DNA of 63,843 nt, the filler included, from Reclinomonas americana ATCC 50394 (Eukaryota): NCBI GenBank assembly GCA_048213135.1. It is 6 parts of 5 records of this genome, joined end to end, with 100 filler letters (N's around TTAATTAATTAA, not from the genome) between each part and the next. Parts side by side here need not be neighbours in the genome. Positions count along the whole stretch, not along the records: positions 44,681 to 52,844 come from PS015436.1; 5 more parts are not named here. One strand, 5' to 3'. Below the pieces are notes generated by a model, which was not told where the DNA came from, did not search any database, and saw nothing but the letters and a program-made list of their open reading frames with translations. Shown one piece after another: positions 44,681 through 50,600 of this stretch (positions are counted from its first letter, which is position 1; each line of letters starts with the position of its first letter). The position numbers and the translations under genes were made by a program.

Positions 44681-47600
44681 GGGGGCAGGTGCTGCAAAGG
44701 GCATCATCAAGGCGCGATCAGCCAACATCTTCTTTCGCTCGATCTCCGCGGCGATAGCTGCTGTGCGTTTGCGAATGTCCTCCTCGAGCTGACGCTTGCG
44801 CTCGCGTCGCGATTCGTTGCGCAAACGCTTGGCGATGCTCTCGGCGTCTTGGAACTCGGTAGTCTTGGCACGCTCCAACTCGGCGCCGACCAGCCACGTC
44901 TCCGACTCGGTGTGCTCGGTGGTGAACGGCGACAGAAGCGTCGGCATTGCACGGTCCCTGTCCGCCTTCTTGTCGCCGGGACTGCAGAAAGACCATGCGA
45001 GTGAGCGACAACAAACAACGGACTGTGCAAGTAGCAGTACGCAACTTGTGAAGAATCTTGAACATGCCGGTTCCCAGCGGCACCGGCGTACCCATGATGA
45101 TGCACTCTGACACACCGTCCATGTGATCGCAGCGCGTGTGCGCCGCCGCATCGAACAAGTGGTCCACTGTCTTCTCGAACGAGGCGAGCATCAGCACCGA
45201 ATCCTTCATCTTTTGCACGCCGAAACGCGTAATGCCGAGGATCTCGCCCTTGAAGGTCATGGTGTCGGCCAGCAGCTGAATGTGTCGACTGTCGATGTTC
45301 ATGCCGTGCGACTTCATCGTATACTGGATCTCGTCCACAATCGTCTTGCGGGCCGCCTCAATGCCGAGCACTTTTTCCACCTGCGATGCGCCAGCGACAT
45401 GATATCAGCAGCTGCACATTAAACAAGAACGGCATCGCATCCCAGTACCTCCATAATGTGGTTGCTTCGCGTCTTGCGGGCCACCACGCCGGGCGTGCCC
45501 ATCACTTGCAGCAACTTGGTGCCCTCGGCCAAAATCTGGTGCTCCTTGCCCTTGACTGCATCCTCAGCCTTGACGCTAATGACGGCGCGACTGACTGTGT
45601 CAATGCCGGCGACCACAATCTTGGAGATGGCGTTCTTGATGGTCTGCAGCTGGTAGTACATGTGCGCGCGGTCCTGCATCGGCGTCATGATGCGCAACTT
45701 GTACTCGCTGACAGCTTGCACGTGCTGTCACAGGAGACCGCGCGACGTAAGCCACACTGCTGCAATATAACACCAAAACCCCCGCCGCTTGCTGTCGCTC
45801 ACCTTGTCGCGCAGCTTCAACTTGGGCGCCTTGATGATTGCCGCTCGCACCTGCTCGGCTGAAATGCTCAGCTGCAGATCCTGAATGGTCTTCTCCGCCA
45901 GGCGCACAGAGAGGTAGCAGCTCCCGGGCGAGTAAACCTCCTTGATGTACTCGCACACCTCGCCGAGGGTGGTGCGCTCAATGCGCGCCTTGACCAAACG
46001 CGCACTCTGCTCCGACCACGGGTTCTCCAGCGTGGCGGTGATGATGGGAGTGTTAATCTTTTGCGAGGCATTGATGATCTCCTTGATGCGCGGCACACCG
46101 AGCGTGACGTCTGACACCCGCGCAGGACTGTCAGCGAAATTCTCCGCAAGGCCAGAAAGCAACTGACGCAACTCATGGAGGCGACGCCGGCAAAGTGGAA
46201 TGTCTTCAGAGTCATTTGCGTGCCTGGCTCACCGATCGACTGCCCGGCCAGTGCACCAATGGCCTGACCCGGTTGCACGTGTGCATCGCGGCACTTGGTG
46301 ACGCACAGTCGGCAAAACTCCTCCAGCTGGTTGCGCGTGATGCCAAAGGCCTTGTTGACCACACCAGTGGCCAAGTTGAAATCTGCCATGCGCAAGTGTG
46401 AGAGCAATCACCACCAATAGCTGCTTTTTGTGCGACAAGGGCCACCTTGGCGGGTGCGGATGCGATCGCCTGCATGAAAATGTGAAAGTGAGTATGAGTG
46501 CACGCACGCTTTCCATCGTGACACCGCCACCACACACGCAACTTGGTCGGCGAGCAGTGAGGGGCGCAGCAACTGAGACACAGAGAACATAAATGCGTAA
46601 GGAATCTCGTGCAGCACAGATATGCGCCGCGTCGGCAGTGACACGAACCGTCTGTGGTTGTGGATGCGAGCAGAATCTGATCGCGCAGCGCTCGGTAGCC
46701 TGTGATGACAAGTTTCAGAGGGGGAACAACTGCAACAAGACAATCGTCGACATTACCTTGCTCAGCTGCAGTGGAGTCTTCAACACACAAAGAGCGCATT
46801 TTAGCAAGCACGACACAAAGTGTCACGACGGTCATGCATGCACTCACCGGCCATGGCTTGGCGAATGACTGATGGTCGCGGAGAAAAAACACAGCGATGA
46901 TGAGACAATTGATCATTACCCTGCACACTCCTTGTGCAACAAGAACACACACCGGCAGTCATGCGCTCGCCTGCCAAGCACATGAGTGAGTGAATGAGTG
47001 TCGACAAGATGCAACAAGCGCAGATGGACTCACCCGCTAATCTCGCCTCCTTGACTCCAACAACCTCTGCACAGATAGGTGCACGCAATGAGATGCCAAG
47101 CGCAGCTCAAGCTCCGTGTTGATCCTCACTGACCTCGGACACCCACGGGCGGTGGAAGCAGGAAGGGTGGTGCTGCAGACAAAGTGAGACATTTGACGTA
47201 ACGCGAGACGTGACACGCCAACGCGCACCATCGAGGAGAGGCTCGACATCTATGCACAAATGGAGAAATGCGAATCGTCCAGTTAGCGAATGCGTGCGTG
47301 CTTTTGGAGAGGCAACGGTGCGGCTGGCACATACCCTTCATGGCGAGCACGGCGGCCTCCACGGCGGCATCAGCGGCTGCGACGTGTCAACGTGAGCATC
47401 TACAGGCATATGCACACACAAGAGAGGACACAAGCGGGAACCTTCCACAGCAGCCGTCGCCACTGTTCAACAAAGGCGACATGAGTCTCAAAATGAGAGA
47501 TGTGTGCACCCAAACCAACAATGAACTAACCGCGCTCTGCATCGCTCGTTGCTGTGTGATGAGACGCCGTGCGACGTAAGAAACACGGACAACACGAACA

Positions 47601-50600
47601 AGTGATGAGCATGCAATGACAACACACACCGGCATTTGCGTCTTCGTCGCCTGTGCACCGCGACAGTGTGCATAAGCATTGGTGCCGAGAAACCGCGTGA
47701 TGGGACTGCAGACACTCACCTTCCGCAAAGTACGTGCGTCGCTCAATGTTGTTTGTCGCCTTTCGTGCCTCTCGGCTCGCTGTAGATGCCGCAATATGAG
47801 CACCCGAACGAGAAATACACAAATCTACTTACGTCAACACGAACCAAGGAGAGCGCTTCGAGCACCTGCGACAACAAAGCATACGTGTCAGTAACAGGCA
47901 GCATACGTAGAATCACTGGCGCAAGCGAGAAAAGTGCGTACTACTGACGGCATTTAGTGCGGCTGACATGTGCACGACACAAACGCACATGATGAGCAGC
48001 AGGACGCAAGCAATAGAGAGAGGGCGCACAAAACCTTGAGCACAGCGCTTGGCGGCCTCACTCACTCGCTCCGCTGCCGGGTGGTTGCATGTGAGTGAAC
48101 AGGCACAACACGACGGAACGCAAGAGAACACACCTGGATTGAGTGGCTTCAACTTTTTGCGTTCCAGCATGGTCAGCACCGCCGTTGCAGCATCTGCAAG
48201 GCCACCAGGGAGTGTAAGAAGCACAGATATATCACTGGCACCGTGTGTCGACACTCACCATGCTTGATCGGTGGTGCGTCTGCCACAACGAAAACAAACA
48301 CACAAGTCAACACAACGCCAAATAAACGCAAACAACACCGTGGAAAACACCCAACTCCTGACGACGTCGCAAGCTGCCCAGACAATGCGCAAGCGAGTGA
48401 GAGATTGCCATAAGTGCATCAAACAAAGAGAAATAGTGCATGTACACACACACACACACCTTCGTGACACCGTGCAGCGGCTGTCCATGATAAGAGATGA
48501 GAGAGACTGCCGTCAGATCACACTTTTCCAACACACCAAACAATTCGTGGCGACGCACCACCAGTTGCTTTTTCAGAATCTGCAGCAGCGCGCACTGTGA
48601 GCGACTCAGTGCGACAGAGACAAGCGAGACAAAGCGCACGCAACATTTTACAGTACTGGCGCCGTCACCTGCAGGCGGAACGATCGTTCGGCATAGTAAG
48701 CTTACGTGGCGTGATATGACACGATCCGTTGAACACAAGTAACGCAACGGAGAGCACGCTGACTCGCTGTGAACCACGTTGGTGTGGCCAGGCAGCGCCG
48801 CAAGCCCAACGCTACTCGCTCGTCGCCGAGATTCCTGGCCTCTTTCAGGACGTATTCCACCATCTGAGAGGCGCGACAAAGCATGAGGCATGCACTCGGA
48901 CTGGCGGTGCTGCTGCGATCGACGCAACTGACTGCGCAAATGACTTGGGGCACCACGCCTTGGCGTCGTCGCTGCTCAGGTAGCCAATCACATCCTCCTT
49001 CATCTGCCACGGCAGGAGGTACACGTCCGTGCGAGGCAGGCGCTGTACGCACACGAAACAAACAGATTAGGGGGTCATGCGCAACACGAGCACACACAGA
49101 AACACAGATGTGCTCGCTGACCTTGCACTTGACGAGCACACGATCAAAGTTGATCGGCTTGCCCTCCTTGGCTTCCATGAATTGCGGGTCAAGACCGTCG
49201 TCACCGTACGTGAACTGCACCACACCGTGCGTCGAGTTGCGCGCCGTTTTGTCGTAGTGCACGTGCAGGTCTTCCAGCGCCTTCATCAGACGACGCTGCA
49301 TGTAGCCCGTCTCGGCCGTCTTGACAGCTGCGCGGCATCAACGTGTGAGCAGAGCCAGCCTAAGAGGAGGGAACGAGAACGGAAGTGAGGATGGCACACA
49401 CACCAGTGTCGACAAGGCCCTCACGACCGGTGATGGTGTGGAAGAAGAACTCGGTGGGTGTGAGGCCGGAGAAGAACGAATTGGCCACGAATCCCTTTGC
49501 CGGTGGTTCCTTGGAGCGCTCCGGGAAGTGCGGCAAGGTGCGGTTGACGAACCCGTTGGGAATTCGCGTGCCATTGACTGTTTGCTGACCGACACAGGCA
49601 ACCATTTGACTGATGTTGATCGGTGAGCCCTTGGAGCCACACAACGACATGATTAGTGGTGCGTTGTCCGGATCCAACTCGTTCAGGCACATCTGTGGCG
49701 GCTGGTGGGTCATCGAATTGTACCACAGAGGGGCACACGAGCACGTACGTACCTTGCCCGCGTCCTCACGAATCACCGACAGGAGACCGTTCAACTTGGT
49801 CTCCAACGACTGCTCCAAATCACAGCCCGGCTGCAACTCCAGCTTGCCCTCCTTCCAGTCGGTAATCAACTTGCTGGCCTCTCGGTATCCATCTGACACC
49901 AACTTGGCCTTCTTGGACTGCACAATGGGCGACGGCGTGACATCGCTGATGCCGATCGAGAAACCGCGGTTGGTGATCCAGCGAGCCGACAAGCGAGCCA
50001 GACGGCCCATACATTCGGCGGCGTAGGCAGCCGAGTAATCGCGAATGAGTGTGTAGAACACGGAGTTCTTGGAGCCGCCACCAAGCACACCTGANNNNNN
50101 NNNNNNNNNNNNNNNNNNNNNNNNNNNNNNNNNNNNNNNNNNNNNNNNNNNNNNNNNNNNNNNNNNNNNNNNNNNNNNNNNNNNNNNNNNNNNNNNNNNN
50201 NNNNNNNNNNNNNNNNNNNNNNNNNNNNNNNNNNNNNNNNNNNNNNNNNNNNNNNNNNNNNNNNNNNNNNNNNNNNNNNNNNNNNNNNNNNNNNNNNNNN
50301 NNNNNNNNNNNNNNNNNNNNNNNNNNNNNNGTTGGCGCTGTTGGCGCTGTTTTCCTTGCCGGCTCTCTCGCTCACTCGTCGTGCTGGCAGGCGCGAGTGT
50401 TGCCACATCGAACGTTCCGCTTCAACGAGTGCTGCTGCTCGCCGTACAATGCCGATTTTGATGGCGACGAGATGAACATGCACATTCCGCAGACCGAGGA
50501 GGCGCGCACAGAGGCGTTTCACTTGATGGGAGTTGCGGTGTTTTTGCCTGTGTTGCACATGTGTGTGGATCGTGTCGCTCACTGTCCGGCTCGTTTGCAG

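Follow-up and report, generated by a model that had tools for sequence, protein, structure and literature searches.

We describe a chain of very short exons, here called the micro-exon array, inside the gene for RPC1, the largest subunit of RNA polymerase III (Pol III), in Reclinomonas americana ATCC 50394 (assembly GCA_048213135.1). The DNA analyzed, 63,843 nucleotides in length and referred to as the window, consists of draft scaffolds chained by N-spacers, and the spacers, which carry a six-frame stop linker, bound the scaffold of the array. On the minus strand, between positions 46446 and 48668, reading of the sequence and splice models place 22 to 23 micro-exons, all of them multiples of 3 nt and flanked by YAG and GT, between 23 to 24 GT-AG introns. 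At the DNA level, the array is a real and unusual gene structure, of a rare design and set in an essential enzyme: its exons have a length mode of 21 nt, the open frame that they form carries a heptad pattern, and the introns stand in fixed register to that pattern. The initial annotation of this DNA, in which the host gene was unnamed, placed 23 exons within 46757-48579; the count of 23 holds only over 46446-48668, and the narrower range contains 19.

The training set of the splice models comprised 22 introns with anchors in conserved proteins and, after self-training, 137 introns, none of them from the array. In eight runs blind to the reading frame, the fractions of inner exons divisible by three were 20/24, 22/25, 22/22, 21/22, 21/24, 22/25, 24/24, and 23/23, compared with 42/118 in the self-annotated genes of the window, parse errors included, and each run returned 9-10 exons of 21 nt; the site-only runs made some false splits within the flanking exons. 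When the frame was constrained with full coding weight, a few exons near the 5' end changed (20/22, 20/23, and 22/24 divisible by three), so that single exon boundaries remain uncertain. All 24 array introns are in phase 1, compared with 59/137 in the background and 2/22 of the anchored introns. Array and anchored introns measure 56-86 nt and 56-83 nt, respectively, with scores of 4.5 versus 4.9 at the acceptor and 5.0 versus 5.7 at the donor, and in-frame alternative splice sites occur at five places of the array. At 47832, a GTAAGT donor that looks strong was discarded, as it scores -5.0 in the model of this organism and would bring an in-frame stop.

Once joined, the exons (669 nt) contain no stop codon in the frame of RPC1 and eight in each of the other two frames. 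The coding log-odds are +48.8 in the RPC1 frame, compared with -27.3 and -95.2 in the others, and dinucleotide shuffles of the joined exons have a mean of 6.2 stops, being stop-free in 0.1% of cases (P=0.001). The predicted insertion comprises 223 residues, 50 of which are alanines, with near-neutral charge, and no single exon reaches 30 residues. Other choices at the uncertain exons would bring the joined length to 657 or 648 nt.

The exon chain and its host gene

The elements of the chain, in the order of transcription, and the scaffold that bears them are as follows.

44681..52844, minus strand: RPC1-bearing scaffold, identified by tblastn of the jakobid RPC1 P0111; the 5' end of RPC1 is absent
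49122..49327, minus strand: conserved RPC1 exon upstream of the array, aligning to human RPC1 863-927 and yeast 877-937
48749..48863, minus strand: 5' flanking exon, 115 nt, with a phase-1 end at a C|GTTGCG donor and a weaker in-frame donor 15 nt earlier
48645..48668, minus strand: micro-exon 1, 24 nt (12 nt via the weaker donor), outside the range first annotated
48559..48579, minus strand: micro-exon 2, 21 nt
48460..48480, minus strand: micro-exon 3, 21 nt
48356..48373, minus strand: micro-exon 4, 18 nt
48259..48279, minus strand: micro-exon 5, 21 nt
48134..48193, minus strand: exon 6, 60 nt
48035..48073, minus strand: exon 7, 39 nt, with a junction-like site at nt 18
47942..47962, minus strand: micro-exon 8, 21 or 18 nt, maybe absent; weak sites (acceptor 1.6; donor -6.0 or -3.3)
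47845..47865, minus strand: micro-exon 9, 21 nt
47720..47779, minus strand: exon 10, 60 nt, with a junction-like site at nt 21
47630..47650, minus strand: micro-exon 11, 21 nt
47531..47551, minus strand: micro-exon 12, 21 nt
47442..47462, minus strand: micro-exon 13, 21 nt
47335..47376, minus strand: exon 14, 42 nt (60 nt via a second in-frame donor); its two heptads are 14/21 identical to one another
47229..47249, minus strand: micro-exon 15, 21 nt
47134..47172, minus strand: exon 16, 39 nt, a proline-rich helix break off the heptad profile
47034..47066, minus strand: micro-exon 17, 33 nt, no sum of 21 and 18
46953..46970, minus strand: micro-exon 18, 18 nt
46848..46868, minus strand: micro-exon 19, 21 nt
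46757..46777, minus strand: micro-exon 20, 21 nt (AAG acceptor), or 9 nt at 46765-46757 (CAG acceptor)
46649..46699, minus strand: exon 21, 51 nt, outside the range first annotated
46543..46572, minus strand: micro-exon 22, 30 nt, outside the range first annotated
46446..46469, minus strand: micro-exon 23, 24 nt, outside the range first annotated
46173..46382, minus strand: 3' flanking conserved RPC1 exon with a phase-1 start; residues 13-69 align to human RPC1 1005-1061 and residues 8-69 to yeast 1056-1117

The identity of the host gene was established from several sides. With RPC1 P0111 as the tblastn query, residues 202-1421 are covered in order on the scaffold; the conserved RPC1 blocks are colinear in an open spliced frame, the 5' end and two gap-covered parts being absent from the assembly. 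Both exons flanking the array find their best PDB matches in RPC1 of human and yeast, not in RPB1 or RPA1, and the named top matches are also RPC1. Moreover, in an RPC1 tree (FastTree, 53 rows, with Seculamonas as the one named jakobid and no further named discobid), the protein of the window falls in a clade with that of Seculamonas ecuadoriensis (P0111) and an unnamed one (P0008), with an SH-like support of 100 and 65% identity. The insertion lies between the exons aligned to human RPC1 863-927 (upstream) and 1005-1061 (downstream), at a site which we take to be just before the last helix of the foot domain. The array lengthens the span between the conserved anchors from 152 to 375 residues.

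Two further observations concern the same gene. At 50331-51050, a piece of RPC1 enclosed by two N-gaps lies on the plus strand, the rest of the gene being on the minus strand, most likely owing to a contig flipped in scaffolding. At 44681-44981 (minus strand), RPC1 runs at least 97 residues beyond the ends of its relatives, in a charged, helix-like C-terminal extension that reaches the scaffold end; a word-index search found no match for it, and the ESM Atlas returned nothing usable.

As for splicing throughout the window, we could notice two classes of 5' splice site (e.g., the minus-strand donors at 48928, 46172, 45045, 51879, 54602, and 42362). Among the 22 anchored introns, GTTGCG is present at 9/9 donors preceded by a non-G base and at 0/13 preceded by G; the corresponding figures after self-training are 28/56 and 1/81. 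The GTTGCG class resembles G|GTGCG with the reading displaced by one base.

Exon lengths and heptad register

From 5' to 3', the exon lengths are 24, 21, 21, 18, 21, 60, 39, 21 (or 18, or absent), 21, 60, 21, 21, 21, 42 (or 60), 21, 39, 33, 18, 21, 21 (or 9), 51, 30, and 24 nt. Eleven of the 23 exons had been reported to measure exactly 21 nt. The excess of this length is confirmed (9-11 exons, with p between 5e-5 and 0.02), but the count of 11 requires two uncertain choices, namely, the exon at 47962-47942 and the exon ending at 46757. In particular, 11/23 gives p=5e-5 under a log-normal null and 0.005 under a geometric one, and a conservative parse with 9/22 gives 0.0009, 0.001, and 0.02 under smooth nulls. 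No background exon of up to 60 nt (n=31, from the genes of the window itself) is 21 nt long. On the contrary, the proposal that units of 21 and 18 add up to the larger exons was not sustained: when all exons longer than 21 nt are set against it (24, 60, 39, 60, 42, 39, 33, 51, 30, and 24), 5/10 fit, compared with 6/13 possible lengths expected to do so (p=0.53), and the nonfitting lengths had been omitted.

The heptad register suggested for the modules is supported by the internal repeats of the insertion, the profile of its modules, and the position of hydrophobic residues. The best internal repeat is a lag-7 diagonal over ~80 residues, with a score of 67, compared with 34+/-5 (maximum, 56) in 150 shuffles; shuffling the order of the modules lowers the lag-7 score to 29.5 (p=0.003), and shuffling the residues of each module lowers it to 20.8. 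Among the 28 lags compared, 7 (z=3.3), 20 (3.2), and 6 (2.2) stand out. Furthermore, the 7-codon modules share a common positional profile (p<=0.002 in six tests), also after removal of the first codon and of the splice-constrained last codon. In 19/23 exons, the fourth residue counted from the intron is hydrophobic, compared with 45% overall (p=2e-4, six offsets tested); since this residue is mostly alanine and the third bases of its codons vary, the pattern is more readily ascribed to the protein than to a signal in the DNA.

The helical character of the modules, which had been put forward for verification, finds support in the mean helical hydrophobic moment of the insertion, which is 1.06, compared with 0.82+/-0.07 in shuffled sequences (0/2000 as high). 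A propensity scan suggests two or three long helices, with an acidic and a proline-rich stretch as interruptions. The insertion combines a 7-residue periodicity with the features of an amphipathic helix, its fold being a prediction. Selection for the heptad register, as originally envisaged, agrees with the fixed register of the introns to the 7-residue amphipathic pattern, but a strict register leaves the 6-residue units unexplained.

Origin and possible use of the array

The explanation that we favor, with somewhat more confidence than doubt, is that a helical appendage of Pol III grew long ago from a single symmetric heptad exon by tandem duplication, and that its modules would be spliced mostly constitutively. 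A symmetric, phase-1 exon of 21 nt would have arisen in a phase-1 intron of the variable RPC1 foot loop and, long ago, would have been copied in tandem together with its intron, each copy preserving phase and frame. Such copying would account at once for the uniformity of phase, the 21-nt mode, and the fixed register. Codon indels, in-frame shifts of splice sites, and a few intron losses may have given the remaining lengths. Since short introns can each be spliced separately, by intron definition, inclusion of the modules is probably the rule. The product would be a lineage-specific, Ala-rich insertion of ~223 residues, in which two or three long amphipathic helices with acidic and proline-rich turns form a surface appendage on Pol III; by analogy, it would most likely serve as a docking surface for a partner. 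A large gene of cadherin-like repeats in the window, so called from reading its translation alone, offers a second repeat-per-exon case, with one-domain exons in phase 1, and supports this explanation.

Several results weigh against it. The interiors of the array introns are no more alike than those of 22 unrelated introns (mean, 14.2 versus 14.1; maximum, 24 versus 26), and the fourfold-degenerate sites of the modules match at chance (30/124). The best pairs of modules share only 12-14/21 nt, the best pair of 21-nt exons not being significant (max p=0.13), and neither Tandem Repeats Finder nor a direct-repeat search found a unit repeat in the array. The global hydrophobic periodicity is modest (p=0.055 at 3.5, 0.014 at 3.6, and 0.80 at 7.0), and the proline-rich 39-nt exon and the 51-, 30-, and 24-nt exons are off the profile. 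An 18-nt module would rotate a continuous helix by about -120 degrees, and 6-residue units would thus break the heptad register. In addition, both the exon base next to the acceptor and the G at the exon end could be splice-site effects rather than marks of ancestry. Finally, the two nearest relatives have no insertion (spans of 157 and 185 residues), and no intermediate state was found among them.

The absence of likeness in the DNA refutes nothing with regard to duplication, because the same test is blank on an evidently duplicated gene: 13 same-position introns of the cadherin-like repeat gene are equally unrelated (mean, 13.6; maximum, 23). Duplication, if it occurred, is old, since introns and synonymous sites show no likeness. 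Tandem duplication of exon plus intron, already advanced in the initial annotation, is still the most economical origin, a putative one, with no trace of it in the introns or at the fourfold sites. The resemblance cited in its favor, between the exon ends at 47630 and 46953, is the best match between units (23 nt, 87%) but consists mostly of the donor site and a GT dinucleotide repeat. With regard to the fusion of modules by intron loss, also part of that proposal, 4/5 of the internal E/K-A junction-like sites in the seven larger exons are located at nt 18 or 21 (p=0.008, post hoc), which lends weak support in four exons; no such site occurs in the 60-nt exon at 48193-48134, the 39-nt exon at 47172-47134, or the 51-nt exon. 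These sites fit intron loss and also a simple continuation of the heptads.

It is also possible to hypothesize that the array works as a set of cassettes, with modules skipped singly or in runs so that a helical arm is tuned two turns at a time or removed, yielding Pol III isoforms, and that symmetry was selected for tolerance to skipping, in the manner of schistosome micro-exon genes. Every exon is symmetric, the flanking exons joined directly give an open RPC1 of normal length (span of 152, compared with 157 and 185 in the nearest relatives), and the in-frame alternative sites at five places, together with one exon with weak sites, would suit such a use. We nevertheless deem it unlikely, as duplication alone yields symmetry, most sites match constitutive ones in strength, the introns are of ordinary short length, and the dependence of the lag-7 pattern on module order (p=0.003) suits one fixed structure. 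That the array acts as a regulated molecular ruler, in which skipping of single 21-nt exons would make a helical arm on the Pol III foot longer or shorter by two turns with its binding face unturned, full skipping would restore canonical RPC1, and combinatorial splicing would give Pol III isoforms, appears distinctly improbable.

Later gain of introns is rather unlikely as well. In this case, the helical insertion would have formed first, by intragenic duplication, and introns would have entered equivalent junctions of polar and then Ala codons or spread by gene conversion. The lack of similarity among the array introns, the unused junction-like sites lying in register within four larger exons, and the abundance of codons starting with G (47% of the insertion), which favors phase-1 G|GT sites, all speak for it. 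Against it stand the probability of phase 1 in 24/24 introns by independent gain, ~2e-9 given the proportions in background and anchored introns, and an intron density severalfold higher in the array than in the conserved parts of RPC1.

A stepwise exonization within one phase-1 intron, whereby exons arose from intron sequence, frame-neutral ones were kept, and helices were selected later, would explain uniform phase and symmetry with no need for similar units, and it suits the nonconforming exons of 24, 30, 33, and 51 nt at the array edges. However, under this scheme the multiples of 3 should be broadly scattered instead of showing a 21-nt mode, and no common positional profile should be present, contrary to what the modules have, and we regard it as very unlikely. 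It is hardly credible that the exons are parses arising by chance within a single long intron at 48748-46383, even though the flanks joined directly give a normal RPC1 and the insertion has no homologue among 324 proteins (best E=0.48) or 80 loci, as frame-blind parses return symmetric exons that are stop-free in one frame only, with coding bias and an amphipathic pattern.

Compared with all these, tandem duplication of a heptad exon remains our preferred reading, and, if transcripts confirm the array, it would be a clear case of new structure grown within a core transcription enzyme by copying of a one-heptad exon. If true, gene structure would still mark the units after the likeness of their DNA is gone. 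At this one locus it becomes possible to test if symmetric arrays of micro-exons simply result from duplication or persist because they permit skipping, and by what route large appendages specific to a lineage come about on the polymerase foot.

Relatives, known systems, and neighboring genes

Among the 324 homologous proteins fetched, 145 have both anchors, with a median span of 172 residues. Since 4/145 exceed 375 residues, the foot loop of RPC1 appears, from these alignments, to accept large unrelated insertions in several lineages. Unrelated insertions of ~80 to >400 residues were observed at or near the RPC1 foot region in other eukaryotes (L032 1-1000, L054, and L038; P0257, P0265, P0277, and P0226), and this part of the protein is a hotspot of additions specific to individual lineages. 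In word-index, HMMER, metagenome, and genome-contig searches for closer relatives, no relative exceeded 71% identity on the two RPC1 exons used as queries, nor did any carry the insertion. Both anchors were present in 28/80 metagenome loci, and the 12 longest spans among them were ordinary introns or single-exon insertions, with no array.

Tropoelastin, titin PEVK, and collagen are encoded by repeat-per-exon genes with uniform intron phase. The array resembles these genes, and exons 4-8 of TNNT3, in its small exons of equal phase with one sequence unit each, but they encode animal structural or muscle proteins, whereas the array encodes a heptad unit within an RNA polymerase; TNNT3 has a heptad domain, unlike the array, in exons other than 4-8.

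Schistosome micro-exon genes (MEGs) consist of tandem symmetric exons with lengths divisible by three, of 6-36 nt each; their variation by alternative splicing is shown by transcripts, and their products occur in tegument and secretions (PMC4699917). The exons of the array are likewise tandem and symmetric (23/23 multiples of 3), with 17/23 of up to 36 nt and six of 39-60 nt. Different from MEGs, the array, read at the DNA level, is internal to a conserved nuclear enzyme subunit of >1400 residues and has one dominant length in heptad register. Nor is its product a small secreted or surface protein made mostly of micro-exons, as we take MEG products to be. In operation the array is akin to a repeat-per-exon gene, and in the symmetry of its exons it resembles a MEG, but it is not classed as a MEG, because it is internal to a large nuclear enzyme and skipping is hypothetical. 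The nank genes of Tuber melanosporum, which encode NLR-like receptors, contain arrays of many frame-neutral, codon-sized, alternatively spliced micro-exons (PMC4986451). The array shares with them the many frame-neutral micro-exons; different from nank, it is made of 7-codon modules in a housekeeping enzyme, and its shortest exon is 18 nt (9 nt in an alternative parse), with no exons of 3 nt.

In regard to the polymerase foot, deletions in this domain are described as setting human and yeast RPC1 apart (PMC7747717). The RPA1 subunit of human Pol I carries a helical foot insertion, dock II, proposed as a docking platform (PMC9438803), to which the array is likened by region and not by exact site or fold: dock II is a truncated HMG box of ~95 residues in metazoan Pol I, whereas the array gives ~223 residues of Ala-rich heptads in Pol III.

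In the literature searched, outside of which most subscription papers fell, we found no description of a micro-exon array in a polymerase gene, of a heptad-per-exon array, or of jakobid micro-exons. The significance of the array is tempered by its reading from DNA, by the frequency of insertions in the RPC1 foot loop, and by the repeat-per-exon genes already known.

Elsewhere in the window, the cadherin-like repeats occupy one or more large genes at 16700-25940 (minus strand), across a scaffold spacer, with phase-1 introns at an equivalent place in successive domains, several exons of 276-282 nt, and one exon of 11 nt at 22056-22046. The neighboring scaffolds carry genes at 40960-43400, 53200-54900, and 1050-5370, which, from their translations, we take to be CFAP45-like (ciliary), a GSK3-like kinase, and Integrator subunit 4-like, respectively.

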